A DNA stretch of 62,581 bases from Rickettsiales bacterium (GTDB lineage: Bacteria; Pseudomonadota; Alphaproteobacteria; Rs-D84; CACZYB01). The notes beneath the pieces were generated by a model, which did not search any database, had not been told where the DNA came from, and saw nothing but the letters and a program-made list of their open reading frames with translations. Made by a program: the position numbers and the translations under genes. Positions 1-55,797 of this stretch are shown here, in pieces. Each line of letters starts with the position of its first letter. Within the stretch, counting starts at the first letter, position 1. The DNA lies in assembly GCA_031263095.1 (NCBI GenBank), contig JAISGI010000036.1:1-62581 (forward strand), in the 5' to 3' direction.

Positions 1-990
1 TATGGAGGCCAAGCTTAAGGCCGAGTGTTCCATATTTGCGACCACGCCGGAAATCTTCTCGGCCGAAATGTTGGCTTTGATTATGAACTGCCCGGTCTTG
101 TCCTCGACCTTGGCAAGTATCTGCTCGGCACGGGTTTCGAGTGCCCCGGCCGCCGCCTGCACAACCGTCCCCGCCTGCGAAAGATTGTCCCTAGCCTCCG
201 CAGTACGGGCAAGTGCGGCCTCGACCGTCGCGTCAAGCTCGCCTTTCTTGGCCGAAACACCATCCAAAATCCTGCCCGTAGTCTCAAGCGTCTGGCCAAG
301 CGAGTACTCAAGCGCGCTCGTCTGCGCAAGTATCCCCTTCGCCGCCGCCGCAGCCTTTTCCTCGGTAATCGCAGAATTCGAAGCAAGCCGCGCCGCATTC
401 TCGCTTAAATTATCAAGCATGGCAGTCGCCTTGCCCTCCAAATCCGCACTCGCCCGCGCCAGCTCCGAGGTAAGGAGGCCAAGCTTGCCCTCATACCCGG
501 TCGCCGCGGCGATTGCGGCCTCCATTGAATCTTTCCCCTCGCGCGTAGTCTTCTCCATCTGGGAATATAAGGAAGACATCGAGGAGACGAGCGAGGCAAG
601 CGCCTCCGATTCGACGCTTATCTTCTGCTTGATTACGGCGATGATTGCGCCCTGGTCGCCGTGCGGGTCGACTATGCTCTGAATAAAGGGATATATGACC
701 TCTCGCTCGTAGTTCGAGTTCATGTTGCGGTCAACATACATTGCAATCATCCATATGAAGCCGACCGGCATTATGGTTCCGGCCAAAAACCCGCCAAACT
801 CGTGCGGAAGCATTTTAAGGAGGGAGGCCGAGGTATAAATGCTGTTCCTCGCGTAATAGATGATAAGCCCCGCCCACACAAGGGACAGCAGTCCGGCAAA
901 ACCATATAGATACGCCGGCCGTATGCGACGATAACCGTAAGTCCGGTTGAACTCGTCGTAGTTGTGTTTAAGCTCTTTGACCGCTGCCAT
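1..990 (-). CDS. hypothetical membrane / coiled-coil protein, C-terminus cut by the window edge; not in the supplied ORF track
   Basis: Hand translation of the reverse strand from ATG at 988-990 gives MAAVKELKHNYDEFNRTYGYRRIRPAYLYGFAGLLSLVWAGLIIYYARN... It contains two hydrophobic segments followed by an Ala/Leu/Glu-rich coiled-coil. I checked it as open over 661-990 and it appears open to position 1. The listed + ORF 2..682 is its Ala/Ser-rich antisense shadow. Confidence 0.5.
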   Translation of the reverse strand, partial: MAAVKELKHNYDEFNRTYGYRRIRPAYLYGFAGLLSLVWAGLIIYYARNSIYTSASLLKMLPHEFGGFLAGTIMPVGFIWMIAMYVDRNMNSNYEREVIYPFIQSIVDPHGDQGAIIAVIKQKISVESEALASLVSSMSSLYSQMEKTTREGKDSMEAAIAAATGYEGKLGLLTSELARASADLEGKATAMLDNLSENAARLASNSAITEEKAAAAAKGILAQTSALEYSLGQTLETTGRILDGVSAKKGELDATVEAALARTAEARDNLSQAGTVVQAAAGALETRAEQILAKVEDKTGQFIIKANISAEKISGVVANMEHSALSLASI

Positions 991-4950: not shown

Positions 4951-5664
4951 ATGAAACTTACTTATACGGAGAAAATGAAAGTGAACGAAAATATAGTGGC
5001 AATCGACGGACCCGCGGGCGTTGGAAAAGGCACGCTGACCAGGAATTTATGCAACAAGTACGGCTTCGTCGGCCTAGACACCGGAAGCCTTTATAGGGCG
5101 ATAACACTCTACCTTATGCGCCAAGGGTACGATATGGAGAAAATCGACCCGGCGCGTGCGGTCGAGGAGACAAAAAAGATTTCCGACAATCACGAGATAC
5201 TGAAATACGCCGCCGACCCGGAAATCCGCTCCGCCCTCAATTCGAAATATGTATATGTCGTGGCCGACAACGCACCGTTGAGGGAGGTTATAAAGGACTA
5301 CCAGGTCGACTTCGGCCGCAGCCCGCCGCCTCTTGCAAACGGTACACCCGCCAAGGGAGCCGTGGTCGAGGGCAGGGATATAGGAACGATAATCTTCCCC
5401 GACGCGCCCGTGAAAATATTTCTGACCGCCGCGCCGGAAATCAAGGCAAGCCGACGCTACGACGAATACGTGTCCAAGGGCATAGAGGCCGACTATAAAA
5501 GCATACTTGCCGAAATGGTCAAACGCGACGAGGCCGACCGCACACGGAAAGTCGGAACCCTTGTCCCGGCAAAGGACTCGCTTATACTCGACACCTCGGA
5601 CAAGTCGCGCGAAGAGGTGCTTGCCTGGGCCTCGAAAGTCGTCGAAGAACGCCTGAAACTATAA
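4951..5664 (+). CDS. cmk: cytidylate kinase (alternative start ATG 4975)
   Basis: P-loop IAIDGPAGVGKGT, LDTGSLYRA and GRDIGTIIFPDA match Cmk. Confidence 0.9.
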   Translation: MKLTYTEKMKVNENIVAIDGPAGVGKGTLTRNLCNKYGFVGLDTGSLYRAITLYLMRQGYDMEKIDPARAVEETKKISDNHEILKYAADPEIRSALNSKYVYVVADNAPLREVIKDYQVDFGRSPPPLANGTPAKGAVVEGRDIGTIIFPDAPVKIFLTAAPEIKASRRYDEYVSKGIEADYKSILAEMVKRDEADRTRKVGTLVPAKDSLILDTSDKSREEVLAWASKVVEERLKL

Positions 5665-5676
5665 AAATCAAAGCTG

Positions 5677-5754
5677 AAAAAAGGCCAGGGTTCCCCCGGC
5701 CTTTTTTCTCCTACTCCCAATTGAAAATATCGCGAAGCGAGATTTTCAATTGAG
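5677..5754. repeat. bipartite hairpin element, copy E1 (terminator hairpin plus CAATTGAAAA palindrome)
   Basis: The element consists of three parts. First is the hairpin A6-GGCCAGGG-ttc-CCCCGGCC-T6. Second is the linker CTCCTACTCC. Third is the hairpin CAATTGAAAAT-N13-ATTTTCAATTG. The right arm encodes the last codons and stop (CTC AAT TGA) of the minus-strand gene that ends at 5746. Confidence 0.75.
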
Positions 5755-6398
5755 CCTATATATCGAGTACGTAATCTGCTTCGCCGGGTCGTACATTACA
5801 TCCGTTTGAGCAACACCCGGAGTCGTGGTCTTGTCCCAAGTCCAAAATTTATAAACCGCATAGCCGGCAGAGGAGGTGCTAAGCACAATCTCGGCATTGC
5901 TCCCGGTGCCAGTCCATTCGAGGCCGTACGCTATGATAGAGCCGCTGCTTGTAAAAAAGTTGCTCCCGTCGCCTGTCCAGCCAAGCGAATATGCGAATTC
6001 CCGGTCGAAAATGGCCACGCGCGAAACCCTCTGGTTCTGCGCTCCAATCGCAAGGTCGAAACGATAGATTCCAAGGCCAAGCACGCCTCTGCCAAGCACG
6101 GTGCCAAAATTTCCGGCCGCACTGGCGACAAGCTGCCAGCGGCTGACGGCCGGCGTCCCGATACAGGACGAAACCTCGCCAGCTGAGATACTCGGACTGC
6201 CAAGCTTTGGTGCCAGGAATTGGCATGCCTCGGACACGGGCACGGTCGCCCCCTCAGGGCATAGCTCCGGCGTAAAACACGCCGAACAGGTATAATAGTT
6301 TGATGAGTTAGAGTTGTTGGCAGATAGTAGAAGAAGTGCGAATGCTAGGTATTTAGCCTTTTGCCCCCCCCCGTACACTTTTTGTTCATATATGTCAT
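5746..6398 (-). CDS. family-A small secreted Cys-containing protein, copy A1; phase-variable and out of frame with its ATG at the assembled G9
   Basis: ATG ACA TAT ATG AAC AAA AAG TGT ACG-G9 reads MTYMNKKCTGGGKRLNT-stop. The long ORF (..QKAKYLAFALLLLSANNSNSSNYYTCSAC.. to ..IYRLN) joins that ATG only at G10 or G7. A GTG at 6378 is in frame but sits far from the SD. Confidence 0.7.
6364..6372 (-). repeat. poly-G tract (G9 on the coding strand) in the 5' codons of A1
   Basis: C9 counted directly on the + strand. Confidence 0.95.
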
Positions 6399-10351: not shown

Positions 10352-11338
10352 TCAGAGGGAACGCCGCAAAAAGAGTATCGTCTCCTCCATATCCTTGGGC
10401 ATCGGCGCCTCGAACTCGAGAGCGACGCCACGCGTAGGATGGATAAAGGCAATGTTCTTGCTGTGCAGCATTTGCCGGCGCAACGAGCCGAGATAATGCT
10501 TTGCGTCCCGGTTCCCGGTCATGTTCATGTACTTGGCCGTGTCCCCGTACATCGCGTCGCCCAGAAGCGGAAAGCCGGAATATTTCATGTGCACGCGTAT
10601 CTGGTGCGTCCGCCCAGTCTCGAGGTTGCACTGGAGCATGGAAATCGGCGGCACCCTCTCACCTTTGAATACCTCGAGAGTCTTATAGCGCGTGATAGCT
10701 TCCTTGCCACCCTCGGTCACCACGCGCATTTCCTGATGAAAACGCGGACTGCGCGCGATATTTTTCTTGATTACGCCAGCCGCAGGCTTGGCCTCGCTCC
10801 ACGCAAGGGCTATATAGTCGCGTCGTACCGCATGAGTTTCGAATTGCCTATACATGGCTATATGCGCAGCATCGGTTTTGCACGCAAGCATGGCACCAGA
10901 AGTATCCTTGTCAAGCCGATGGACAATGCCCGGCCGACCCGCCTCCATGCCGATTGAGGAAAGCTTCCCGCCGGTATGATAAAGCAATGCGTTCACAAGC
11001 GTCCCGTCCTCGACACCCGCCCCACGATGCACGACCATCCCCGCAGCTTTATTCAGAACTATAATATCGTCATCCTCGTAAAGTATGTCAAGCGGCAGGT
11101 CTTGCGGCACCGGCGGCTTGTCCGAAGCGCGCGGAACAATAGTAAGGGTGAATGTATCGCCTGCGGCAATCTTCTTGCTGTTGTCGGCAACTACTTCCTC
11201 GTCCGCGTCAAGCAGATAACCCTCTTTCACAAGCTTTTGCAACCGCGAACGCGACACATTTGGAACAGCCGTCGCAAGCCATTTGTCAAGCCGCTCCCCC
11301 GCCGCTTCGACGGGCACTGTAAGGTTCAAGGTTTCCAT
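10352..11338 (-). CDS. rluD: 23S rRNA pseudouridine synthase, RluA family (RluD-like)
   Basis: N-terminal S4-like domain, the catalytic motif HRLDKDTSG, and TGRTHQIRVH. Confidence 0.85.
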   Translation of the reverse strand: METLNLTVPVEAAGERLDKWLATAVPNVSRSRLQKLVKEGYLLDADEEVVADNSKKIAAGDTFTLTIVPRASDKPPVPQDLPLDILYEDDDIIVLNKAAGMVVHRGAGVEDGTLVNALLYHTGGKLSSIGMEAGRPGIVHRLDKDTSGAMLACKTDAAHIAMYRQFETHAVRRDYIALAWSEAKPAAGVIKKNIARSPRFHQEMRVVTEGGKEAITRYKTLEVFKGERVPPISMLQCNLETGRTHQIRVHMKYSGFPLLGDAMYGDTAKYMNMTGNRDAKHYLGSLRRQMLHSKNIAFIHPTRGVALEFEAPMPKDMEETILFLRRSL

Positions 11339-12030: not shown

Positions 12031-12057
12031 GCCAAAGTCTAACAAAAGGAGAAGACT

Positions 12058-12673
12058 ATGAACAAAAATCGTACGGGGGGGGGCAAATAAGTATTTAGCT
12101 ACTGCGCTTCTCCTGATTTCCGCCAACCACGCAAACTCCACCAATTATTATACATGTACAAGCTGCGGCGAGAACCGCCTGTTCACACTGGCCGAGGCGA
12201 CAAAATGCCTTGGCGCCGACACCTCCGGCAAATGGGAAAAGATTGTCGAGGCGGAGAACGACCTGGCAAACTCCGGCAAATACAACCGGACAGGAACTCT
12301 CCCGGCGGGAATTTACCGGCTCGAGTCATACAACCGACATTACGGCCTCGGCTCGGCCACGATACAGATTTCCGGCACGAAATACTATGGCATAAACAAC
12401 TCCATTCATCAGGATACGGCAAGGATAGACATAATGAATTCCGCGGTCGCAACCGGAAACGATAGACCGGAGCATAGCGCTTTCAACTGCTCGGTGGATA
12501 TTCCGGCATATTACACTGACGGCCATTGCAACGACGCAGGCATAGCCGAGGCCGACCTTGCCAAACACAATATAAACATAGATTGGAACACTTGGCGCCA
12601 AGTACCCGGCATAACTGCCGCCAATACCGAGACCTGCCTCGGCTGCGCCGCGATTTATAGGTGGAAAGAATAA
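12058..12673 (+). CDS. family-A small secreted Cys-containing protein, copy A2; phase-variable, OFF at G9
   Basis: ATG AAC AAA AAT CGT ACG-G9 reads MNKNRTGGGK-stop. At G8 or G11 it reads MNKNRTGGANKYLATALLLISANHANSTNYYTCTSC... through to ...CAAIYRWKE. The downstream frame is open from the tract to 12673, and track ORF 12434..12673 is its tail. Confidence 0.75.
12075..12083 (+). repeat. poly-G tract G9 in the 5' codons of A2
   Basis: Counted directly. Confidence 0.95.
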
Positions 12674-12760: not shown

Positions 12761-13304
12761 ATGTTATATATGAACAAAAAGTGTACGGGGGGGGGCAAAT
12801 AAGTATCTGGCTTTAGCGCTTCTCCTAATATCGACTAACTCTCAATCTTCAAATTATTATACTTGTACCAATTGCCTAGTGCCCGAGCTGTGCGCCACAG
12901 GAGCTACGGCCGACTTCGCCAAGTATGATAAAGCGCTGAGCAGGGACGAAGCCGCCGCCGCATTCGGCACTCCGGCCAAGACGCGCTGGCAACTCGTCGC
13001 AAGCGGCAACGTCGATTCCCAACCCTATTCTATATCCTCATCCGGGGTGTATAGGATAACTGAGCGATGGTCCACCGGATTCCAGCCAAACGAATATCGC
13101 GATTCGTTCGCTTTCGCGCTCTCTTCCTCCGACGGTCAAGTAAAAATGGAGGGATGCCCACAAGTGAATCAAGGCAACGCACTTATTAGCCTCTGCAACG
13201 GCCAAGGCTCGCAAGTGCCGGGGATTTCAGACCAAGACATCGACGCCGAACTCCCACCATTTTCAGGAAGCGGATACAAATGGCAGCTATACAGGTTGCA
13301 ATAA
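12761..13304 (+). CDS. family-A small secreted Cys-containing protein, copy A3; phase-variable, OFF at G9
   Basis: ATG TTA TAT ATG AAC AAA AAG TGT ACG-G9 reads ...CTGGGK-stop. At G8 it reads ..TGGANKYLALALLLISTNSQSSNYYTCTNCLVPELCATG... through to YKWQLYRLQ, which is track ORF 12879..13304. Confidence 0.75.
12787..12795 (+). repeat. poly-G tract G9 in the 5' codons of A3
   Basis: Counted directly. Confidence 0.95.
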
Positions 13305-13313
13305 AAGACAGTG

Positions 13314-13360
13314 TGCCCGGCTGCACCGCAGTTTATAGGTGGAAAAGCCAAGGTTTCACC
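13314..13360 (+). pseudogene. orphan 3'-end remnant of an A2-like gene
   Basis: TGCCCGGCTGCACCGCAGTTTATAGGTGGAAAAGCCAAGGTTTCACC aligns with the A2 3' end at 12635-12682 (TGCCTCGGCTGCGCCGCGATTTATAGGTGGAAAGAATAAGGTTTGTCA), with a 1-nt indel. Confidence 0.6.
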
Positions 13361-13373
13361 TATATAAAAACCG

Positions 13374-13456
13374 AAAAACTCCGACGGCATGTACGGCGGA
13401 GTTTTTCTCATTCTTCCAATTGAAAAAGACGGACTACGCGAAGTATTTTTTAGTTG
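13374..13456. repeat. bipartite hairpin element, copy E2 (second hairpin degenerate)
   Basis: The first hairpin is AAAAACTCCG..CGGAGTTTTT and the linker is CTCATTCTTC. The second hairpin is CAATTGAAAAA-N17-ATTTTTTAGTTG. It overlaps the stop codon of the NUDIX gene. Confidence 0.6.
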
Positions 13457-13857
13457 CCCAGCACTCCATAGAAAGCCGCCTCTCCGATATCCGCCCAAGT
13501 GGCGTACTGACCCGAAAACACGCTCTCTATCATAGGTATTTCATCCATATCGTAAAAGGATTTATCTATAAATTCCGCCTCGAACATGAAGACTATCTCG
13601 TGCCCTTGCTTTCCCTCGAAAATGAACAGGCTCTCTTGCGCGCCAAGCTGCCTTCCGATGGTTATCTCCGCCCCGATTTCCTCCTTGAATTCGCGCGCAA
13701 GGGCGGCCCGCATAGGCTCCCCGAACTCGATTCCGCCGCCAAGCATACGGAAATATCGGCTGTTCTTTACCTTGTCTTCCCATATGTTGACAAGATACTT
13801 CCCATCCGCGCGTCTGATAGCCGCAACGACAATGGGTCGGATTGCATTTTCTATCAC
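13450..13857 (-). CDS. NUDIX hydrolase
   Basis: Nudix box GGGIEFGEPMRAALAREFKEEIG. Confidence 0.88.
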   Translation of the reverse strand: MIENAIRPIVVAAIRRADGKYLVNIWEDKVKNSRYFRMLGGGIEFGEPMRAALAREFKEEIGAEITIGRQLGAQESLFIFEGKQGHEIVFMFEAEFIDKSFYDMDEIPMIESVFSGQYATWADIGEAAFYGVLGN

Positions 13858-16443: not shown

Positions 16444-16564
16444 CTTCCTTCCTTTCTTTTTTGTGTCCAAACGCCGTCGGCGCCGGAATAAATTGTAGCG
16501 TTTCAAGGCCGCATTGCCAAGTAGAACATAAGCCTAGGACGCACCGCCTACCACAAAAATCAAA

Positions 16565-16644
16565 GCGAAGAAATCCCGCGGTCTCCGTGGGATTTCTTCT
16601 CACTATTCCAATTGAAAAAGCCGCTTGCGGATTTTTCAATTGAG
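16565..16644. repeat. bipartite hairpin element, copy E3
   Basis: The first hairpin is GAAGAAATCCCGCGG-tct-CCGTGGGATTTCTTC and the linker is TCACTATTC. The second hairpin is CAATTGAAAAA-gccgcttgcgg-ATTTTTCAATTG. Its right arm carries the A4 codons CTC AAT TGA. It is roughly 80 percent identical by eye to E4, in direct orientation. Confidence 0.8.
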
Positions 16645-17212
16645 TTTATACAGTGCTCCATACGCCGCATTCCCAACCTGAAAGTCCGCCTTGCTTATAT
16701 TGGGAACGTTGATTATATCGGAAGTTGCACGCGCCTGCACGAGCATGTTATAGCCTCCTTTGCCCGTTTCGTATATCCAGGAATTGTATCCATAACCAGT
16801 AGAATCTTGGAAATAGTGCAATATGAGAGAATTGACCGGATTTTCAAGCACGACTCCCTCTATATGGAAATTGGAACCGTCTATTGTCGAGACAAGCATG
16901 TATATCCCGGGCGCGATGTCCGGAATGTCCATTCTGCCAAGCGCGCCTATATCCTTTTTATTCTCGCGAACTTTCGTCCATCTGGAAAAGGCCGGACTGC
17001 CAAGACAATCCGTGAACTCCTCAATGCTAAGCACGGCATTGAGCTTGCAGTCCGCGCTGCGTCCAGCATTGACACAAGCCCCCGGCACGGCGCAAGCTGT
17101 GCAGGTATAATAATTAGATGATTGAGAGTTGTTGGCAGATAGTAGGAGAAGCGTTGCGAGTACTATTACTCTATTTGCCCCCCCCCGTACGCTTTTTGTT
17201 CATATATGTCAT
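16636..17212 (-). CDS. family-A small secreted Cys-containing protein, copy A4; phase-variable, OFF at G9
   Basis: ATG ACA TAT ATG AAC AAA AAG CGT ACG-G9 reads ..RTGGGK-stop. At G8 it reads ..TGGANRVIVLATLLLLSANNSQSSNYYTCTACAVPGAC... through to GALYKLN, which is track ORF 16636..17088. Confidence 0.75.
17178..17186 (-). repeat. poly-G tract (G9 on the coding strand) in the 5' codons of A4
   Basis: C9 counted on the + strand. Confidence 0.95.
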
Positions 17213-17308
17213 TATTGTCTTTCTCCTTTGGTTAGACTTATATATTATACCGCATTATAAAGATAAAAGAAAGTAAAAATTCAGATTTTGCCCAGCCAAA
17301 CATAAAAA

Positions 17309-17387
17309 GCGAAAAAATCCCGCGGTCTCCGTGGGATTTTTTCACATATTTCCAATCGAAAAAGAGCTTAGCGACTTTTCGATTGAG
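17309..17387. repeat. bipartite hairpin element, copy E4
   Basis: The first hairpin is GAAAAAATCCCGCGG-tct-CCGTGGGATTTTTTC and the linker is ACATATTTC. The second hairpin is CAATCGAAAAAG-N9-CTTTTCGATTG. It starts directly after the rlpA stop codon. Confidence 0.8.
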
Positions 17388-18584
17388 CTAGTTCACATTC
17401 CACTTGAGCTCGTTGCCATCCTTTAGGATAACACGCGAACCATCTATACCCTTGGCACCGATTGCTTTCTGGACACGCTCGGCCTCGGTCTTGGACGGAA
17501 ATTCGCCAAGCCGGACTTTGTAGAGCGTGTTGCCGTTCTGCACCGCCTTGAATATCTTGACCGGCGCCACACCGACAAGCTTGTTCTTCATCGCCTCGGC
17601 CTTTTCATAGCTGGAGTACGCCGCAACCTGCACGAAATATTCCCCCTCCTCCGGCGAACGCCGAGCAGCGGATGCAGGAGCCACAACGGCCGCAACCTCC
17701 TCTATTACAGGTGTCGGAGCTGGCACTGGAGCGACCGGAGTCGCGGTAAAGTTGTCATGCCCGACATGGCTCTCGCGTGTATAGTTCGGCTGCATCTCGA
17801 CCACGCCGCCATCGGACGCAGGCAGAGGTCTGACCTCCGCAGCAGCTGGGTCGGGCACCGCGCTCTCGGTTCTGGCAAGCGTTATGTCCGGCGAGTATAT
17901 GTCGGTGTTGCCACCCGCAAGGGCAAGCTCTTTCAGGTTCCGGCTCTGCTCGGGCAGTATCTCGACCTTCACGCGCGCCGAGCCCTTCTGCTTGACGCCG
18001 AGCACATCCGCCGCAGCGGACGACAGGTCGATGATTCGGTCGCGCGCAAACGGCCCGCGGTCGTTGATTTTGATAGTAAGCGAAGCACCGTTCTCAAGGT
18101 TCGTCACACGCACAAGCGAGGGCAAGGGAAGCGTCCTGTGCGCAGCAGTGTATTTTGTGGTATCGAAGACTTCGCCATTGCTGGTTGACTTGCCGTGGAA
18201 GTCCGGCCCGTACCACGAGGCGATTCCAACCTCGCTGTACTCGTAGTTCTCATGCGGATAATAGGGAACTCCGTCGATAAGGTAAGGATTACCGATTTTA
18301 TAAGTCCCGCCCGAGGCAAGCGGAGCCGCAGGAGCCGCGGGTGCTGCAGGAACGGGTGCCTGGGTCGGCGCAGATTCTACTGGCTCGGCCGCCTGTGGAA
18401 CCGAGCTGAACTCATCCTCGGTCGGCTGGGCGAAGTTGTCGTCATAGCTCTGCATATCGTTGTAAGAGGGCTCGGCCGCAGCGGGCGCGGGTTTGGTCGC
18501 CGAACGTATCGGCACTTCGCTTCCACGGTATTCGGCGCACGCGGCAAGGACGAACAAAGCTATAAACCAAAGATTCTTTTTCAT
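17388..18584 (-). CDS. rlpA: septal ring lytic transglycosylase RlpA (DPBB plus SPOR domains)
   Basis: Lipobox-like signal MKKNLWFIALFVLAAC, DPBB segment GIASWYGPDFHGKSTSNGEVFD..AAHRTLPLPS..V.NL.NG, and a C-terminal SPOR domain (YFVQVAAYSSYEKAEAMKNKL). Confidence 0.88.
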   Translation of the reverse strand: MKKNLWFIALFVLAACAEYRGSEVPIRSATKPAPAAAEPSYNDMQSYDDNFAQPTEDEFSSVPQAAEPVESAPTQAPVPAAPAAPAAPLASGGTYKIGNPYLIDGVPYYPHENYEYSEVGIASWYGPDFHGKSTSNGEVFDTTKYTAAHRTLPLPSLVRVTNLENGASLTIKINDRGPFARDRIIDLSSAAADVLGVKQKGSARVKVEILPEQSRNLKELALAGGNTDIYSPDITLARTESAVPDPAAAEVRPLPASDGGVVEMQPNYTRESHVGHDNFTATPVAPVPAPTPVIEEVAAVVAPASAARRSPEEGEYFVQVAAYSSYEKAEAMKNKLVGVAPVKIFKAVQNGNTLYKVRLGEFPSKTEAERVQKAIGAKGIDGSRVILKDGNELKWNVN

Positions 18585-19053: not shown

Positions 19054-19126
19054 GACTCTTCAAAACCGTCCCGCAAGCGTTCGGCCAACCGTTGCAAAGA
19101 TTGCCCCGATCGCTTGACACCAAAGG

Positions 19127-19158
19127 GAAAATCCCCCGGGAAACCGGGGGATTTTTTT
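19127..19158 (+). terminator. rho-independent terminator
   Basis: AAAATCCCCCGG-gaaa-CCGGGGGATTTT followed by a T-run. Confidence 0.75.
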
Positions 19159-19242: not shown

Positions 19243-19671
19243 ATGTATAATAAGATAATGCTTGCGGCGGTTGCTGCCATAGCGGTTTCAAGCGGAGCAT
19301 GGGCGGTAAATAAATCAGGCAGGCCGACTAATGCGCCAGCCAAAACCGTAACCGTCAAGTACGGTATAGTAGTAAGCAAGGAATTCGACTTCGGTGCGAA
19401 AGGTTCATGCAATAATGCCACATTCGGCGACCCGGCCAGAGGCGTAAATAAGGAATGCTACAGCGGCCTGGGTGAAAAAATAGCCAGCGAGGGCAAAGGT
19501 TTCACTCGCCCGGACTGCTGCACGGCAGTATTATATGGCAAGCTGACGTCGAAATCCGTACCGATGGGAAGTGCCTGCAACAACGCGACCTTCGGCGACC
19601 CAGCCAAAGGATATAAGAAAGCTTGCTACATTGACGGCCGCAAAGTCGCCGATGAAGGTGGCGAAATCTAG
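19243..19671 (+). CDS. small secreted Cys-rich protein with an internal duplication
   Basis: Signal peptide MLAAVAAIAVSSGAWA. The motif [KG]GSxCNNATFGDPA[RK]G..K.CY occurs twice. Confidence 0.65.
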   Translation: MYNKIMLAAVAAIAVSSGAWAVNKSGRPTNAPAKTVTVKYGIVVSKEFDFGAKGSCNNATFGDPARGVNKECYSGLGEKIASEGKGFTRPDCCTAVLYGKLTSKSVPMGSACNNATFGDPAKGYKKACYIDGRKVADEGGEI

Positions 19672-19684
19672 TAATATACAGACC

Positions 19685-19765
19685 AAAAAAATCCCGGGAT
19701 TTCCCCGGGATTTTTTACACATATTCCACCAATCAAAAGTACCCCAAAGGGGCAACTTTTGATTG
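19685..19765. repeat. bipartite hairpin element, copy E6
   Basis: The first hairpin is AAAAAAATCCCGGG-attt-CCCCGGGATTTTTT and the linker is ACACATATTCCAC. The second hairpin is CAATCAAAAGT-N14-ACTTTTGATTG. Confidence 0.75.
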
Positions 19766-19771
19766 AATTTT

Positions 19772-20473
19772 CTAGAACTGCACTCCGTATTTAACGCCGA
19801 ACACATCGTCGTTATCATCGTTCCCGATGTCGGTCTTGTAATAGACGCTCGCGGCCGAGTTCGCGCTGATTACGAGGTTGCCCTGCACCACGAACCAGAA
19901 GCTGTCGTCAATTCCCTTCTGCGTGTGCTGCTCGTCGTCAAGGGCAAGATAGCCCGAAAACTTGGGCGTGAATTGGTACAGGCCCTCAAGCACGAAATGG
20001 ATTATCGAATCATGATACCCCGACGCTGACAAGCGGTCGAACGTAATCTTTCCGTCATAGGTGTACTTGTCTTTCACCTTGCCGCCACGTACGCCGATTC
20101 CCCAGACGCTCGTATCTCCGGTAGCCGAAACGTCGTCGCTTATGGCGCCGCCTACATGGGCAAGTACATCGAGAAGTTGCCCGCCGCGGTTCAAGGCACT
20201 ATAGTTCGCGCCCAAGTCCCAGTTGCCTACTCCGTCGTCGCGACCCGAGTTCTTGCTCCAGCGGTCGAGGTCGAATCCGAACGACATCGCAAACTTGTTG
20301 GAGAATCCGTATCCGAATGTCTCGAGCGCCTGCAGCCTGTCGTCCGATTTGTTCAGATCCGTTATGGAATAGAACTTGCCTTCCGACGGACGGTAGAACG
20401 GATTTTCGATTCCTACGCCCGCATTGGCGGAAACGGAAGCCAGCAAAAGCCCCGCTGTAAGAAGTTTATTCAT
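19772..20473 (-). CDS. outer-membrane beta-barrel protein
   Basis: Signal peptide MNKLLTAGLLLASVSANA, beta-strand periodicity, C-terminal ..VKYGVQF. Confidence 0.7.
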   Translation of the reverse strand: MNKLLTAGLLLASVSANAGVGIENPFYRPSEGKFYSITDLNKSDDRLQALETFGYGFSNKFAMSFGFDLDRWSKNSGRDDGVGNWDLGANYSALNRGGQLLDVLAHVGGAISDDVSATGDTSVWGIGVRGGKVKDKYTYDGKITFDRLSASGYHDSIIHFVLEGLYQFTPKFSGYLALDDEQHTQKGIDDSFWFVVQGNLVISANSAASVYYKTDIGNDDNDDVFGVKYGVQF

Positions 20474-25615: not shown

Positions 25616-26902
25616 ATGAAAGCTCTCAAATTCCTGCTGTTGCTTACCTTTTTCTCCTCCTGCGAGGACACGGGCGAATACGTGGTCGAATATACGCAGA
25701 TACAGCCGGGGAGTCCCGCCGCGCCCGCCCAGCGCCCCGTGCCCAAGGTGCCTGTCGTCCCGATATACGAGCGTAAAATCCCGCGCACGTTCGAGAATGT
25801 TGAGAAGTTCAATCTGGAAATCGAGGCGCGCTGCCGCGTTGATTGGGCAAGCCAGCACCTGATCTCGTCCGAGCCGTTCTCACGCGATAGCTTCAAGCTC
25901 GAGCGTACGGACAAGGGCGATCCCCTGCCCACGCTGAATGTGGAAAACCTGTCGTTCAAGGACAAGACCGCGTCCGAGGTAATGGGTATGCTTCTCAAGA
26001 ATACCGGTATCCGCCTGAACGCAACCGATATATTTACCAAAAGGCTTGAGGCAACGGGCATCGGAGGCAACCTGGCCCAAGTCCTCGACCTCGTAGCCTC
26101 AATGGGCAGCGTATATTATACATACGACAGTCGCACGAAAAGCCTCGAACTGAAGCGCCACGCGTCTTTCAATCTTCAGGTGCCCCTTTCGGACGAGGCT
26201 GTCTTGGCGGTCGAAGACGCACTCCGCGGCGCCGACATCGACGGTATAGTTGTGGACTGGGAGGATAGGACGCTGATATTTAACGGCGATTCGGTGGTCG
26301 AGGATAGGGCAAGGAACACCATAGCCAAACTCTCGCTAGAGAATTATCTGATAGCCTACGACGTCAACGTCTTCCGCGCCTATCCCAAAACCGGCGGGTC
26401 GATAGAGTGGCAGCATATCCTGAAAGCGTTCGATAAAGGCTCGGTCAAGCTCTCGCAAAAGGGGGTCATCGGCCGCGCGCTGGTCGTGGGGCCTAACTTC
26501 AACGCAAGCTCGCTGGCCGAGTTTTTGTACCCTAGGGCCGACACAGCGCTAATCTCCGCCGGAACGTTCGTTATGCCAGAACGGTGGCAGGGCCGCTTCG
26601 ACATAGGGCGCTGCACGCGCGATGTCGAGTACGAGACCGACTTGGGCGTACTGGCCGAGGCTCGCTTTACCGCAGACAAGGATACGGTCGGACGCATAGA
26701 CGCGACAGTGGTGCTAAGGACTGCCGCCGGAGACATAGCCAAATATTCCACCCCCGTGCGCCTCGGCAACAACATACTGATAATCGGAATCCCGACCCAG
26801 TACTTCGCGTCCGGCACTACAACCGAGCTTCCCCCGACGACCGAACTTATAGTCCTGATAAGCCCGCGCATAATCCGCATAGTAAAGCCGGAGGCTAAAT
26901 GA
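25616..26902 (+). CDS. secretin-family-like outer-membrane lipoprotein
   Basis: Lipobox LTFFSSC. An N0-like segment (NLSFKDKTASEVMGMLLKNTGIRLNATD) is followed by an N1-like segment (LQVPLSDEAVLAVEDALRG..IVVDWEDRTLIFNGD). The C-terminal tail TELIVLISPRIIRIV is typical of secretins. Confidence 0.55.
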   Translation: MKALKFLLLLTFFSSCEDTGEYVVEYTQIQPGSPAAPAQRPVPKVPVVPIYERKIPRTFENVEKFNLEIEARCRVDWASQHLISSEPFSRDSFKLERTDKGDPLPTLNVENLSFKDKTASEVMGMLLKNTGIRLNATDIFTKRLEATGIGGNLAQVLDLVASMGSVYYTYDSRTKSLELKRHASFNLQVPLSDEAVLAVEDALRGADIDGIVVDWEDRTLIFNGDSVVEDRARNTIAKLSLENYLIAYDVNVFRAYPKTGGSIEWQHILKAFDKGSVKLSQKGVIGRALVVGPNFNASSLAEFLYPRADTALISAGTFVMPERWQGRFDIGRCTRDVEYETDLGVLAEARFTADKDTVGRIDATVVLRTAAGDIAKYSTPVRLGNNILIIGIPTQYFASGTTTELPPTTELIVLISPRIIRIVKPEAK

Positions 26903-28146
26903 GCTTCGAATCCCTAGTCGCTTTCAAGTACCTCAAATCCAAACGCAAGGACGGGTTTATCTCGATAATAACCTGGCTCTCGCTTATAGGCATAATGCTT
27001 GGCGTCGCGACATTGGTGATAGTGATGTCCGTAATGAACGGCTTCCGCGAGGAGATGATGGCCAAGATAATGGGCATGAACGGCCACGTGATTGTCATGC
27101 CAAAGTACGGCAAGGTCTCCATGCCGGAGTATAAGGAAATCAAGGCAAAAATAGAAAGTCTGCTGCCCTCCCACATCTCCCAACCTCCGGTTCCTATGGT
27201 CGAGGCGCAGGTAATGGTAAGCAGCGCTAACGCCTCCGGCGGCGCGATTATGCGCGGCATTGCGCTTGACGATATGGCCTCCATAAAACCCTTGGCCAAG
27301 GGACTGCTCGAAACCAACATTTCCCAAATCACCGCGGACGAGGTGCTGATAGGCTACCAGCTCGGCAACAAGCTTGGCCTCCTCGCCGGTGACAACATAA
27401 CCATAACCTCGCCAAGGGGGAACCAGACCGCGTTCGGCACCATCCCGCGCATGAAAGCCTTCGCCATAGGAGCAACGTTCAAAAGCGGCATGTCCATATA
27501 CGACAGCACATTCGTCTTCGCACCATTGGCGCTTATGCAGAACTTCCTCGACATGGAGGGCAAGGTCTCCCATATCGAGGTGTTCCTGAAGAACCCCGAC
27601 GCCTCACGCACCGCCGCACAAGCGTTGGCAGCTAACCTCCCCGGCTATCGGCTCTATACCTGGCAGGAGCAAAACTCAAGCTTTGTAAGCGCCCTGAACG
27701 TCGAGCGCAACGTCATGTTCATAATTCTGACGCTTATAATCTTGGTCGCAAGCTTCAATATAATCTCAAGCCTTGTCATGCTGGTCAAGGACAAGTCAAG
27801 GGACATAGCCGTCTTCCGCACTCTCGGCGCCACGCGCGGCTCGGTAATGCGGATATTCATAATCGCAGGCGGAGCCATAGGCGTTGCGGGCACAATCCTA
27901 GGCCTCTCCTTGGGCCTTGTGGTAAGCTATAATATAGAGTGGGTACGCCAGCTTTTCCAAACCCTGACCGGCACGAAATTGTTCCCCGACGACGTGTACT
28001 TCCTCTCCGAACTGCCAAGCCGCGTCGACTACGCCGAGGTCATGGGCGTCGGCGCCATGTCACTCTTGATTTCGTTCTTGGCCACAATCTACCCATCCCG
28101 CAAAGCCGCGAAACTCCTGCCCGTGGAGGTGCTTAGATATGAGTAG
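26899..28146 (+). CDS. lolE: lipoprotein-releasing ABC transporter permease (LolC/LolE family)
   Basis: N-terminus FESLVAFKYLKSKRK.GFISIITWLSLIGIMLGVA, a periplasmic MacB-like domain, and a C-terminal FtsX-type transmembrane bundle. ATGA overlap with the upstream gene. Confidence 0.9.
   Translation: MSFESLVAFKYLKSKRKDGFISIITWLSLIGIMLGVATLVIVMSVMNGFREEMMAKIMGMNGHVIVMPKYGKVSMPEYKEIKAKIESLLPSHISQPPVPMVEAQVMVSSANASGGAIMRGIALDDMASIKPLAKGLLETNISQITADEVLIGYQLGNKLGLLAGDNITITSPRGNQTAFGTIPRMKAFAIGATFKSGMSIYDSTFVFAPLALMQNFLDMEGKVSHIEVFLKNPDASRTAAQALAANLPGYRLYTWQEQNSSFVSALNVERNVMFIILTLIILVASFNIISSLVMLVKDKSRDIAVFRTLGATRGSVMRIFIIAGGAIGVAGTILGLSLGLVVSYNIEWVRQLFQTLTGTKLFPDDVYFLSELPSRVDYAEVMGVGAMSLLISFLATIYPSRKAAKLLPVEVLRYE
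28123..28145 (+). repeat. 23-bp direct repeat, copy 1 (lolE 3' end)
   Basis: GTGGAGGTGCTTAGATATGAGTA is identical to 28265-28287. Confidence 0.95.
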
Positions 28147-28173
28147 CTCCAAGCAAACCATACAAAACAAGCC

Positions 28174-28258
28174 GTGCGAAACCTGCGGCGTGTACGTAGG
28201 TTTCGCACACCTATTCCCCACTCGAAAAAGCGAGCACAGCGCTGATTTTTCGATTGAG
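28174..28258. repeat. bipartite hairpin element, copy E7, inserted between lolE and lolD
   Basis: The first hairpin is GTGCGAAACCT-N13-AGGTTTCGCAC, with no flanking T-run. The linker is ACCTATTCCCCAC. The second hairpin is TCGAAAAA-N16-TTTTTCGA, followed by TTGAG. Confidence 0.75.
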
Positions 28259-28264
28259 TATTCA

Positions 28265-28287
28265 GTGGAGGTGCTTAGATATGAGTA
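28265..28287 (+). repeat. 23-bp direct repeat, copy 2 (lolD start region)
   Basis: GTGGAGGTGCTTAGATATGAGTA. It contains the lolD ATG at 28281. Confidence 0.95.
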
Positions 28288-28964
28288 ATATATTGGAGCT
28301 CCGCGGTATCCACAAATCCTTCGGCAAAGGCGAGTCCAAGGCGACAATCCTCGACAACGCCTCGCTCGAGCTGAAACAGGGTGAAGCCGTGGCGCTTACG
28401 GGCCCAAGCGGCTCCGGCAAGTCGACGCTCCTCTACATAGCAGGCCTGCTCGACAACGCGGACAAGGGCGACATTATAATAGACGGCGCCGACTGCGCCA
28501 AGCTTGACGATACCGCCCGCACGCTCCTAAGGCGCGAGAAGCTGGGCTTCGTGTACCAACAGCATAACCTTTTCGCGGATTTCACCGCGCTCGAGAATGT
28601 GGCCATCCCGCTGATGATAGCCGGACGCCCGCACGAGGAGGCGCGCGCCACAGCCGCCAAATACCTTAAAAAACTTGGGCTCTCCCACCGCGAGAATGGC
28701 CGCGCTACCGAGCTTTCCGGCGGCGAAGCGCAAAGGGTGGCCATAGCCCGCGCGCTTGTCTTGAAACCCAAAATTCTGCTTGCGGACGAGCCGACGGGAA
28801 ACCTCGACCCCAAGAACTCCGAACACGTCTTCGAAATGCTCATATCCCTTGCAAACGAGGAGGGAATGGCAGCGCTTGTGGCGACCCATAACCCCACGCT
28901 TGCAAAGCGCCTCGCCCGCCAGGTCTCGGTCATAAACGGCAGACTAAGCGCCGCCAAACAATAA
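28281..28964 (+). CDS. lolD: lipoprotein-releasing ABC transporter ATP-binding protein
   Basis: Walker A GPSGSGKST, ABC signature LSGGEAQRVAIARAL, Walker B ILLADEPTGNLD. Confidence 0.92.
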   Translation: MSNILELRGIHKSFGKGESKATILDNASLELKQGEAVALTGPSGSGKSTLLYIAGLLDNADKGDIIIDGADCAKLDDTARTLLRREKLGFVYQQHNLFADFTALENVAIPLMIAGRPHEEARATAAKYLKKLGLSHRENGRATELSGGEAQRVAIARALVLKPKILLADEPTGNLDPKNSEHVFEMLISLANEEGMAALVATHNPTLAKRLARQVSVINGRLSAAKQ

Positions 28965-29043: not shown

Positions 29044-29616
29044 GTGTCCAAGGAAAACGCGAACCTGATAAGGCCCGGCTGGGTAATCCGCAACAACGGC
29101 AAGCAATATACCGTCATGAACATACAGATAGTCCAGCCCGGCAAGGGCGGGGCGTTCATACAGGTCGAAATGCGAGACCTTGAAACCGGCCTTAAAACCT
29201 CCGAACGCTGGCGCACCGCCGACACGGTCGAGAAGCTCCTGGCCGAGGACAAGGACTTCCAGTTCCTATATAACGAGGGCGCGGGCGCCGTCTTCATGGA
29301 CTCCGAAACGTTCGAGCAGATAACAGTCGCAACCGACATCATCGGCGACGACCGGGCCAAGCTCTTGAGCGACGGAATGATAGTCGTCATAAGCTTTGTC
29401 GAGGGCCGCCCCGTCTCGGTCAAACTGCCCAAGAACGCAACCGTCAAAGTGGCCGAAACCGAACCGGTCGTCAAGGGCCAGACAGCCACGGGAAGCTTCA
29501 AGCCCGCCATGACCGAGAACGGCATCCGCGTCATGGTGCCGCAGTTCATCGACGCCGGAGACGAGCTTGTCATCTCCACCGACGATTTGAGCTACATCGA
29601 ACGCGCGAAAAAATAG
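29044..29616 (+). CDS. efp: elongation factor P (GTG start)
   Basis: IRPGWVIRNNGKQYTV.N.Q.VQPGKGGAFIQVEMRDL.TG matches EF-P. Confidence 0.95.
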   Translation: MSKENANLIRPGWVIRNNGKQYTVMNIQIVQPGKGGAFIQVEMRDLETGLKTSERWRTADTVEKLLAEDKDFQFLYNEGAGAVFMDSETFEQITVATDIIGDDRAKLLSDGMIVVISFVEGRPVSVKLPKNATVKVAETEPVVKGQTATGSFKPAMTENGIRVMVPQFIDAGDELVISTDDLSYIERAKK

Positions 29617-30087: not shown

Positions 30088-30259
30088 AATAAATCCTCTG
30101 TCATCCCTGCACTCACCTTGTCATCCCCGCACGCACTTTTGTCATTCCCGCACCTCCTCTTGTCATCCCCGCGCAGGCGGAAATCCGGTTGCCAACAGTG
30201 CCTGAATATTTAGAATAAGCAATCGGATTTCCGCCTCCGCGGAAATGACAATAAATCCT
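30088..30259. mobile_element. MITE-like element with 10-bp target-site duplication, TGTCAT...ATGACA termini and a reiterated left end
   Basis: The element is flanked by AATAAATCCT at 30088-30097 and again at 30250-30259. The inverted repeat is GTCATCCCCGCGCAGGCGGAAATCCG (30162-30187) against CGGATTTCCGCCTCCGCGGAAATGAC (30224-30249), 23 of 26 matching. The left end is repeated four times (TGTCATCCCYGCRC at 30099, 30119, 30140 and 30161). Confidence 0.6.
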
Positions 30260-31200: not shown

Positions 31201-32329
31201 CTATTGTATCGCCCTGACGGCATTTACGCACTCGTCGATTTCCTTGAAAAGCTTGTCCACCTCAAGCATGCCGACAACGCCCGCCGCGCCCGAGGCAAGT
31301 CCGCCGACCGCCGCCACGCCCGAGGTTATCATTCCCCCGACGCCCGAGCCAAGCTTGCCTATGCCCTTTGCTTCCTGATGGGCGAGCTTGCTCTTGACCT
31401 CGGCATCGGCCAAGGCATAGTTCTTGCCGCGATTATAATCCGCGTCTTGCAGATACTTCGCATACGCGTCATCGTCCCAAGTCCACGAAGCCATGTCCAC
31501 CGCCAGTCTCGAGTTGTCGTTGTAAGTAGCTATCAGGTTGCCCAAGGTCGAGCCATAAAGCACCGGCTTGTCGCTCGTGCAGGTGGTGGAAGCAATGGGC
31601 GCGAACTTGACGGAGGTCTCGGTAAAGGTTATGTCATCGGACGAGCAGCCCTCTATGCTGTCGTGCGCGTCGAGTATCTGGGCGGCAAGCTCGACTTGGT
31701 CGTCAAGAAGACTGTCCATATCCCTGTCTATGTCCGCTTTACTTTTGTAGTTGGCCATTACCGCGCCCTTCATTGTTTCGGGAAGCGAACCGAGCGCCGC
31801 GCCCATATCGGCGTTGTTGCCCTCTTTTATGAAAGCGTCCTCTCTGGCAATCGAGGCTTTCGCATGCTCCTCTTTCGCCTTTTTAAGATCGCTCGAGTTT
31901 TTAATCTGCCCGGCAAGGTTCAGGCCGCCGCCGATAAGGGACGCCGCACCGCCGCCTATTGAAAAGCCAAGCGCAACCTGAAGCGTCTGCTTGTCGCGTA
32001 TTTTCCCGCACGCGGTTTTCGCTTTGTTGATAAGGGCCCAAGTCTCCGCGCCCGCACCCACGCTTGCAACGGCTATTCCGACATCCCCGGCCGGAGCTTC
32101 GTAGGTCGAAGCCACAGGCTCCGCCGCAACGCTTTCCGCCGTGGGAACAGCCGCAGGATTGTTGTGTATAGCGCCGCCGCCGGCTGCAACCGCGCCACTG
32201 GAGCGCCTGGAAACAGGAGCCTTTGGCCGGTTGTCCCGCCTCTGCGCTCCGGCTTCACCGCCGATTGCCGAGATTAAAACTAAAAGGGAAAGACTATACG
32301 CCCCCCCCCGTGCACAGTTTGTTCGTCAT
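31201..32329 (-). CDS. family-B secreted glycine-zipper / coiled-coil protein, copy B1; phase-variable, OFF at G9
   Basis: ATG ACG AAC AAA CTG TGC ACG-G9 reads MTNKLCTGGGV-stop. At G8 it reads MTNKLCTGGAYSLSLLVLISAIGGEAGAQRR... and joins track ORF 31201..32115. It is paralogous to the gene at 39461..40588: both have the ACGKI motif, Gly-zipper segments, and a C-terminal ..EIDEC..A.. tail. Confidence 0.7.
32301..32309 (-). repeat. poly-G tract (G9 on the coding strand) in the 5' codons of B1
   Basis: C9 counted on the + strand. Confidence 0.95.
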
Positions 32330-34752: not shown

Positions 34753-35808
34753 TTATCTCCTGCTCAAACCGGCTGCCATAGTCGGCACATCGCCGGGCTC
34801 GAATCCATAGTGGGCAAGCCAGCGCACATCGTTCTCGAAGAACCGCCGCATGTCGTTTATGCCGTACTTGAGCATGGCGATTCGCTCTATCCCCGTGCCG
34901 AACGCGAAACCCTGGTACACCTCCGGGTCAACCCCCACCGCGCGAAGGACGTTAGGGTGCACCATCCCGCAGCCGAGAATCTCGAGCCACCGCTTGCCCT
35001 CGCGCCCGATTTTAAGCTCGCCGTTCTCGAAAGTGCAGCGTATGTCCATCTCGGCCGACGGCTCGGTAAAGGGGAAAAAGTGCGGCCTGAACTGCACCGG
35101 CACATCGTCCGTCTCGAAAAACGCCTTGAGGAAGTCGATAAGACAACCCTTCAGGTGCGACATGTTCACTCCGCGGTCGATGTATAGTCCCTCGATTTGC
35201 TGGAACATAGGGGAATGCGTGGCGTCCCAGTCGCGCCGATACACCCGCCCCATGGTGATGATTTTGATAGGCGCGCCATGCTCCTCCATCGCGCGGATTT
35301 GCACGTCCGAAGTCTGCGTGCGCAAGAGGTTCCCACCCTCGATAAAGAACGTATCCTGCGTGTCCCGCGCCGGATGCTCGGGCGGAAAGTTTAGCGCGGC
35401 GAAATTGTGGAAATCGTCCTCGATGTCCGGCCCGTCCGCCATCTTGAATCCCATTGCGCCGAAGATTTGAACAATCTCGTCCCTGACCTGCGAAAGCGGA
35501 TGAATCCGCCCGCCCGCAGTGTTCTCGTATGAAAGCGAAACGTCCATAGGCGAGGCCGCAAGCCGAGCGTTTATTTCGACGGCCTCAAGCTCCTCGCGCC
35601 GGGATTCAAGCGCCGAGGTTATTTCCTCGCGAGCAAGGTTTAAGGTCGCACCAGCGGCCTTGCGCTCCTCCTCCGGCAACCCGCCAAGAGTCTTGAGTTC
35701 AAGCGTCAACGCGCCCGACTTCCCAAGCACTCCGACACGCAAATCCTCGACTTCGCGCACAGTTTTCGCAAGCGCAACTTCGGAAAGTATTTTATCTTTG
35801 TCAAACAT
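34753..35808 (-). CDS. pheS: phenylalanine--tRNA ligase alpha subunit (a duplicated upstream in-frame start exists at 35856)
   Basis: Class II aaRS motifs (HPARDTQDTFF, MGRVYRRD, GFAFGTGIERIAM). Confidence 0.95.
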   Translation of the reverse strand: MFDKDKILSEVALAKTVREVEDLRVGVLGKSGALTLELKTLGGLPEEERKAAGATLNLAREEITSALESRREELEAVEINARLAASPMDVSLSYENTAGGRIHPLSQVRDEIVQIFGAMGFKMADGPDIEDDFHNFAALNFPPEHPARDTQDTFFIEGGNLLRTQTSDVQIRAMEEHGAPIKIITMGRVYRRDWDATHSPMFQQIEGLYIDRGVNMSHLKGCLIDFLKAFFETDDVPVQFRPHFFPFTEPSAEMDIRCTFENGELKIGREGKRWLEILGCGMVHPNVLRAVGVDPEVYQGFAFGTGIERIAMLKYGINDMRRFFENDVRWLAHYGFEPGDVPTMAAGLSRR

Positions 35809-35876
35809 GTTCTTCCTCCAATAAAAATCGGAAAGTATTTTATCTTTGTCAAACATGTTCTTCCTCCAATAAAAAA
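35781..35876. repeat. 2 x 48-bp tandem duplication covering the pheS SD, ATG and first 9 codons
   Basis: Units 35781-35828 and 35829-35876 are identical at 47 of 48 positions. Confidence 0.95.
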
Positions 35877-55703: not shown

Positions 55704-55764
55704 CCTGCGTCGTATCTCTACGCCACGTTTTTCATGATAACAGCTATTGGGATGATAATCAACC

Positions 55765-55797
55765 AAAAAAATCCCGGGTTCTTCCCGGGATTTTTTT
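55765..55797. terminator. bidirectional terminator overlapping the LysM gene stop codon
   Basis: AAAAAAATCCCGGG-ttct-TCCCGGGATTTTTTT. Confidence 0.75.

Follow-up and report, generated by a model that had tools for sequence, protein, structure and literature searches.

A contig of 62,581 nucleotides from a Rickettsiales bacterium (JAISGI010000036.1, assembly GCA_031263095.1; the whole contig is called the window below) was analysed at the junction of lolE and lolD, two essential lipoprotein-export genes, where a short repeat element is flanked by two copies of a 23-bp sequence. lolE (26899..28146, plus strand) is a single lolC/E-type permease gene of 415 aa, ending in ...LLPVEVLRYE and a TAG stop at 28144-28146; it scored 412 bits against TIGR02212 (lolCE), exceeding the cutoff of 362. 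lolD (28281..28964, plus strand) encodes an ABC ATPase of 227 aa (MSNILELRG...), and its start was placed by N-terminal alignment with relatives. The best family for this protein was TIGR02211 (LolD) at 253.9 bits, under the curated cutoff of 307.75; the name is supported by the position of the gene and its alignment to the lolE neighbours in relatives.

The 23-mer GTGGAGGTGCTTAGATATGAGTA has exactly two copies in the whole window, both on the plus strand and with 0 mismatches, at 28123-28145 and 28265-28287. No third match with up to three mismatches was found in the window, and none appeared in 100 dinucleotide-preserving shuffles. The repeat is exactly 23 bp long, since the bases preceding the two copies differ (C versus A), as do those following them (G versus A). 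Copy 1 consists of the last seven lolE codons (V-E-V-L-R-Y-E) and the TA of the stop, which is completed to TAG by the G at 28146, the first base of the insert; it also holds a now-orphan GGAGG (28125-28129) and ATG (28139). Copy 2 carries the Shine-Dalgarno site of lolD (GGAGG, 28267-28271), a 9-nt spacer, and the ATG at 28281, and it keeps a relic of the lolE end as a TAA at 28286-28288. The insert between the two 23-mers is 119 bp long (28146-28264), and both genes are intact.

The 23-mer extends from 2 nt upstream of the Shine-Dalgarno site through the second base of the lolE stop. The shortest duplication that would leave both lolE and lolD complete is 22 nt, and the observed 23 nt is close to this minimum. 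Excising 28146-28287 yields ...GAGTAATATATTGG, that is, ATGAGTAA, in which lolE and lolD overlap by 8 nt, a junction typical of relatives. A preliminary description of this DNA, made from its letters, had located both 23-mers; it had read the first as the lolE end and the second as holding the lolD ATG, proposed that removing one copy with the 119 bp restores a coupled junction, and argued that so long a duplication was needed for both genes. All of these statements held: the ORF (open reading frame) 26899-28146 ends in VEVLRYE and TAG, the ATG at 28281 is backed by the alignment with relatives, and the 23-mer spans GGAGG, ATG, and the last seven lolE codons plus TA.

Among the perfect local repeats in the window, just two are explained neither by paralogy nor by copies of the element, and the 23-mer is one of them. 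The other is a 48-bp perfect tandem duplication (2.0 copies, 100%) at 35780-35875, at the start of the minus-strand gene 34753-35856. The duplicated stretch takes in GGAGG, ATG, and the 10 initial codons of that gene (MFDKDKILS...); being in frame, it extends the N-terminus by 16 residues or else provides a second start. It is, after the 23-mer, another recent case on this contig in which a translation start region was duplicated.

The lolE/lolD junction in related genomes

For comparison, 80 lolE-lolD loci were taken from alphaproteobacterial species-representative genomes, with gene ends assigned by script. The spacing between the genes was -8 to +5 nt in 72 of them (21 at -8, 10 at -4, and 27 at -1). 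The remaining eight gave long spacers that were traced to a crude choice of start codon or to an extra ORF, and the ATG overlapping the lolE stop was still there. Altogether, an ATG overlapped the lolE stop in 83 of 83 related loci examined. The comparison that the preliminary description had proposed thus gave the expected compact junction, and the long spacer in all relatives that would have spoken against an insertion was not seen.

The closest relatives overall, L081 (72% LolE identity) and L082 (68%), both metagenomic, have a 4-nt lolE/lolD overlap. The closest species-representative genomes, L007 (65%) and L001 (63%), have an 8-nt overlap, reading ATGAATAA and ATGAGTAG, respectively. The LolE C-terminus is VLRYE followed by the stop in all relatives shown, preceded by (V/I)(E/D) in six of the seven closest and by AK in L007, and the corresponding 24-mer of L059 is nearly the same as that of the window. 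The stop-to-start spacer of 134 nt from lolE to lolD in the window is so far unique among the loci compared. Because lolE and lolD overlap in the relatives, the long spacer of the window is, on this sequence comparison, the derived state.

No other contig encoding this LolE was found by exact look-up, and no LolE relative above 72% identity was present among 5.8 billion proteins. The databases contained no conspecific genome showing an empty site; the organism is represented in the collections by one 62.6-kb contig.

A family of two-hairpin repeats

The insert is one of six copies of a two-hairpin repeat of about 103-119 bp, all on the plus strand of the 62.6-kb window. Copy F, the insert (28146..28264, 86.1 bits), runs through a leader, hairpin 1, a linker, and hairpin 2 to the tail ...GAGTATTCA. 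Copy A (5654..5760, 99.7 bits) lies between cmk (plus strand) and an uncharacterised minus-strand gene, which converge; copy B (13351..13463, 78.1 bits) adjoins the 3' end of a minus-strand NUDIX gene; copy C (16545..16650, 104.9 bits) lies between two minus-strand genes; copy D (17289..17393, 94.6 bits) comes right after the stop of a minus-strand RlpA-like gene; and copy E (19663..19773, 86.3 bits) lies between convergent ORFs. These scores (78-105 bits) come from a covariance model built on the same copies and on one from metagenome contig L179, and the matches hold by construction. Copy F was found with nhmmer at an E-value of 1.2e-18, and the covariance model gave 86 bits (E about 4e-22), in agreement with the preliminary description, which had taken the intervening DNA for a copy of a bipartite element. 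The homology between copies F and D covers 28149 to 28264, with TTCA ending both; since their ends coincide, the insert is a whole unit rather than a fragment.

The unit consists of a leader (~YAYAAAAAYCAAAGCG), hairpin 1, a linker (CNCNTATTCC), hairpin 2, and a short tail (GAG...TTCA). Hairpin 1 has a GC-rich stem that is flanked by an A-run and a T-run in copies A-E and in L179, and it looks, from its sequence, like a two-way intrinsic terminator. Hairpin 2 is composed of CAATYGAAAAAG, a variable inner stem, and CTTTTTCRATTG. Identity among the copies is only 46-75%; compensatory changes were found in 12 of 25 predicted pairs, in both hairpins, and the fold z-scores of the copies were -5 to -7, so that the family is structured. 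The genes whose 3' ends the copies directly follow are unrelated (cmk, NUDIX, RlpA-like, and uncharacterised ORFs): A, E, and probably B lie between convergent ORFs, and C and D directly after the stops of minus-strand genes. No part of the window matched an Rfam family at the gathering score.

Outside the window, a full copy occupies 677-789 of L179, a 2.2-kb unrelated contig of different GC content, where it lies between a tRNA-Val gene and a convergent ORF. It scored 86.6 bits as a member of the set from which the model was built, and a hidden Markov model made from the six window copies alone recovered it at full length (E 5.9e-16). Two diverged copies in opposite orientation, 11030-11134 (minus) and 11164-11282 (plus), were found in L082, between two tRNA-Leu genes just downstream of lolD. 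Their hairpin 2 arms differ in sequence from those of the window while the two-hairpin layout is the same; the layout is therefore older than the sequence. No copy was found in the flanks of relatives more distant than L082. A strict hairpin 2 pattern gave no match in a collection of metagenome contigs that excludes the window itself, and with a looser pattern only L179 was genuine among the matches listed (at least 120 loci). Two scans of viral contigs for the element returned chance matches or none, and BLAST of copy F and the junction flanks against plasmids and phages found no match.

Several further observations concern the family. At about 790-860 (minus) of L179, between the tRNA-Val gene (867-943) and the full copy, there is a short hairpin, AAACCGAAAAAAGTCGGCGACTTTTCGATTG, with the leader of the repeat and its CGATTG end; it resembles a second copy that has lost its interior and stands in tandem with the full one. 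The 3' arm of hairpin 2 in copies A and C contains, at 5746-5754 and 16636-16644, the two final codons and the stop (CTC AAT TGA) of the neighbouring minus-strand gene, the stop in copy C being that of ORF 16636-17088. The element therefore supplies the ends of these paralogous genes. Co-duplication with one paralogous gene family was considered as an explanation for the spread of the repeat and was rejected, as it would apply at most to A and C, whose minus-strand neighbours end in ...Y(R/K)LN and the stop; the other copies abut unrelated genes.

All six copies have the same plus orientation whatever the direction of the flanking genes, although six are too few to establish a strand bias, and the GC skew is negative throughout the window, which suggests a single replichore. 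Stand-alone two-way terminators that resemble hairpin 1 and lack hairpin 2 (AAAATCCCCCGGG...CCCGGGGGATTTTTT type) were seen at 19114-19157 and 55748-55816, and hairpin 1 may be a generic terminator form in this genome.

Structure and predicted transcription of the copy between lolE and lolD

Hairpin 1 of copy F (28174..28208, plus strand) has 14-nt arms that form an inverted repeat with 93% complementarity, an RNA free energy of -25.8 kcal/mol, and a z-score of -6.1. It has neither the A-run nor the U-run: TGCG/CGCA takes the place of the AAAA/TTTT of the other copies. The GAAAAAATCC...GGATTTTTTC of those copies reads GTGCGAAACC...GGTTTCGCAC in F, four paired changes by which the stem is kept and the U-tract is lost, and the hairpin is followed by CACCUAUU rather than by a U-run. 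The preliminary description had also pointed out this difference, and the A- and T-runs are indeed present in all six others (A-E and L179). Hairpin 2 of F (28219..28256, plus strand; CACTCGAAAAAG...GATTTTTCGATTG) is 93% identical to that of L179 over 44 nt.

The two internal hairpins are the only inverted repeats in 28100-28320. An 8-nt inverted pair near the junction, AGCTCCAA/TTGGAGCT, was treated as chance-level. So was a likeness between lolE at 28103-28120 and the element at 28169-28186 (13 of 18 positions identical), as about one such match is expected, by estimate, in a 221-nt region.

A consensus scan called no plus-strand terminator or promoter in the spacer; the terminator scan is crude and detected hairpin 1 elsewhere only in part and only on the minus strand. 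Judged from the missing U-tract, RNA polymerase would be expected to read through copy F into lolD. Selection probably allowed only a copy with such a U-less hairpin to stay in an essential operon.

An open reading frame across the insert

A 49-codon ORF (28139..28288, plus strand) runs from the duplicated lolD ATG through the insert to the duplicated lolE stop. It has its own GGAGG, and its TAA stop at 28286-28288 overlaps the real lolD start region (ATG 28281). The ORF thereby recreates the ancestral overlap of stop and start at both of its ends, with its start and its stop both taken from host sequence. By analogy with what has been proposed for the mycobacterial MIRU, it could relay translational coupling from lolE to lolD.

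Origin of the duplication

We consider a single duplicative insertion of the repeat into an 8-nt lolE/lolD overlap, with read-through and use of the 49-codon ORF, to be somewhat better supported than all other explanations combined. The ancestor would have had the overlap ATGAGTAA, with the final lolE codons containing the Shine-Dalgarno site of lolD. Into this junction a repeat of about 119 bp, discrete and non-autonomous, would have been inserted at a staggered break about 23 nt wide, which was then filled in on either side of the incoming DNA. The left copy would preserve the lolE C-terminus, the stop being finished by the first base of the insert, and the right copy would preserve the ribosome-binding site and start codon of lolD. 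Because both essential genes stay intact only if about 22 nt or more are duplicated in this register, selection would explain the unusual product. With no U-tract after hairpin 1 in the surviving copy, RNA polymerase would proceed to lolD, and ribosomes leaving lolE could restart on the 49-codon ORF and reach the lolD start, which would melt the hairpins and keep the two genes translationally coupled.

Several points weigh against this account. No flanking repeat, exact or degraded, was found at copies A-E, nor at the L179 copy when exact repeats were sought; the test has low power, as an old 23-bp duplication would be invisible at a copy identity of 46-75%. Terminal inverted repeats are lacking, the first 20 nt of the six copies being identical to the reverse complement of the last 20 nt at 5-8 of 20 positions, and in their absence a classical DDE transposase is not indicated. 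A search confined to ten flanking ORFs found no transposase among them, and we know of no bacterial element without terminal inverted repeats that makes so long a duplication. Copy F shares just 46-58% identity with the rest of the window copies, which leaves the donor unseen. The loss of the U-tract is also unlikely to have followed the insertion: the two 23-mers hold about 18 weakly constrained positions, which bound divergence at less than about 0.17 substitutions per site (95%), and eight coordinated changes in hairpin 1 since then are therefore unlikely, so that the U-less hairpin probably came with the donor sequence and did not arise at this site. Downstream of it, the weak hairpin 2 followed by GAUUUUUCG could cause partial termination. 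Finally, the ORF stays open in about 15% of shuffled inserts, and its openness was for this reason rejected as evidence of selection.

The preliminary description had judged that the insertion looked recent and had attributed the duplication to it. The insertion is derived relative to the known relatives, whereas the perfect repeat bounds neutral divergence only loosely; likewise, the duplication and the insert are both present, whereas the insertion as the cause of the duplication has a live rival. In this rival, the 23-bp tandem duplication came first, by replication slippage, and an insertion that made no duplication of its own came later. We regard it as possible but distinctly less probable than a single insertion. 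A tandem 23+23 would be harmless, with lolE stopping at TA+G and lolD keeping its own ribosome-binding site, and the perfect 48-bp tandem at 35780-35875 shows that such duplications occur and persist on this contig. That no other copy of the element has a target duplication would also follow. Within the tandem product, the lolE stop and the second GGAGG both survive only if the insertion lies within 1-2 nt of the joint; as only the joint tolerates extra DNA, selection would explain the exact placement, and a reading in which the insert directly follows TAG is equally valid. The cost of this sequence of events is that two rare events must have struck one site, and that the tandem must have had nearly exactly the minimum useful length, versus 48 bp in the other example. 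No intermediate was seen, in databases that contain no close relative able to show one.

A third explanation, which we find improbable, invokes an error of repair or replication in which the nascent strand switched locus, copied about 119 nt of terminator-bearing intergenic DNA, and returned 23 nt upstream. Such an event would produce a duplication just long enough without a dedicated enzyme, the shortest viable length being the one that survives, and it fits the lack of terminal inverted repeats. The F tail ...TATTCAGTG resembles that of copy C, ...TATACAGTG, and the likeness extends 3 nt (GTG) into the right 23-mer as possible microhomology. This match is just 3 nt long and at the right junction, the donor is unseen, and the insert begins and ends where the family homology with copy D does (28149-28264), which is not expected of an arbitrary segment. 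We therefore rank the single insertion first, as the most parsimonious account, odd as it is without terminal inverted repeats, followed by the two-step origin and then by strand switching, without strong separation.

An assembly artefact or chimera, in which the assembler joined the element and a second 23-mer, is very improbable: beyond the metagenome origin of the contig nothing specific points to it, the path would require real X-R-Y and Y-R-Z junction sequences, a random misjoin would hardly leave both genes perfectly intact, and the final k-mers used by current metagenome assemblers are longer than 23 bp, making it unlikely that such a repeat collapses the graph. Least credible are an ancestral long spacer lost in relatives, which the ATG overlapping the lolE stop in all 83 related loci contradicts, and 23-mers that are the core sites of a site-specific integration that subsequently lost its cargo, since, although integrases do leave direct repeats that rebuild the end of the target gene, the DNA between the 23-mers is a complete repeat unit and not a random remnant.

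The single insertion can be extended to a more speculative scheme, in which we place little confidence. Here the family would be a mobile "terminator cassette" whose mover enzyme staggers its cut by about two helical turns, like Cas1-type integrases or casposases; the lolE-lolD copy would be the only young insertion in view, and the host would depend on the relay through the 49-codon ORF.

Comparison with known repeat systems

In placement and shape, the family is comparable to SPRITE of pneumococcus, a repeat of about 105 bp with a long stem and a U-rich tail that is strongly enriched near gene 3' ends and between convergent genes and lacks both convincing terminal inverted repeats and an established target duplication (2011, PMC3049150). 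The analogy covers the size, the location at 3' ends and between convergent genes seen for the window copies and L179, and the terminator look; a stable stem followed by a U-rich tract is present in A-E and L179 and absent from F. The window family differs in belonging to another phylum and in having a second conserved hairpin, and one copy is found within an operon, is flanked by a 23-bp duplication, and has lost the U-tract of hairpin 1 there.

The mycobacterial interspersed repetitive units (MIRU; Supply et al. 1997) are operon-internal short repeats at start codons in which the end of an ORF is coupled to the downstream gene, an arrangement thought to minimise harm to expression (as summarised in PMC12548453). 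The 49-codon ORF, putative and defined by its reading frame, has the same layout at both ends, with a stop overlapping the downstream start. The ORF of MIRU belongs to the element, whereas the window ORF takes both its start and its stop from the duplicated host junction, and no tandem array is present.

Chunjie, a MITE (miniature inverted-repeat transposable element) of Geobacter uraniireducens, is described as lying within an operon, with 21-bp terminal inverted repeats and 9-bp direct repeats (PMC3184786). Both elements are small, non-autonomous, foldable repeats in an intact operon, flanked by a direct repeat of the target; the window element lacks terminal inverted repeats, and its sole duplication is 23 bp. 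Compared with classical MITEs in general, the window family is small (<300 bp), multi-copy, and foldable (103-119 bp, six window copies plus those of L179 and L082), its ends are identical at just 5-8 of 20 positions in the six copies, and a fixed short target duplication at each copy is missing, only F being flanked (23 bp).

Like the REP/BIME/REPIN elements of gamma-proteobacteria, the family forms extragenic hairpins at gene 3' ends and within operons and shows compensatory changes. No conserved GTAG-type head was found: GTAG/CTAC is absent from three copies, and its position is not conserved in the rest. The search for a RAYT gene covered ten ORFs. As far as these sequences go, nothing ties the window family to REP/RAYT elements, and we know of no REP insertion that duplicates its target. 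CIR, a Caulobacter/alpha-proteobacterial intergenic repeat of about 110 bp, is associated with CcrM methylation sites; the six window copies contain no GANTC, whereas the window as a whole has 2.7 per kb. IS1630 (IS30 family) and the IS1634 group make target duplications that are long or variable, which shows that duplications of about 20 bp or more are possible in bacterial transposition. Those elements are autonomous, with transposase genes and terminal inverted repeats, and nothing links the window family to them.

The two-hairpin, terminator-like family is undescribed, although the kind of small interspersed repeat to which it belongs is already known, and the junction is a naturally occurring instance of a familiar type of event and does not represent a new kind of system. 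Its interest lies in showing how selection acts as a filter on repeats that insert into essential operons with translational coupling, where the sole product seen duplicates just the stretch from ribosome-binding site through stop, rebuilds both gene ends, and has lost the terminator tail. It defines a repeat family from a little-sampled group of Alphaproteobacteria that are uncultured and for which most of the nearest public genomes are metagenome assemblies, and it may bear on how hairpin repeats without terminal inverted repeats move and on whether short ORFs born by insertion preserve coupling.

Other features of the window

Downstream of lolD lies efp (29044-29616). The gap that follows it contains a 21-bp tandem repeat in 3.6 copies (TGTCATCCCCGCACCCACTCT, 30099-30172) and, after it, at 30160-30251, an inverted repeat of 33 nt with 88% complementarity and a 26-nt loop.

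Runs of nine G (or C) occur a few codons past the ATG of small paralogous ORFs (ATGAACAAAAANNGTACGGGGGGGGGCAAATA...), at 12057-12089 (plus), 12772-12801 (plus), 6360-6390 (minus), 17172-17204 (minus), and 32295-32324 (minus). They lie within conserved 5' regions of 60-85 nt, and in at least one of the copies a stop follows straight from the run, a pattern that resembles slipped-strand phase variation in a family of surface proteins.

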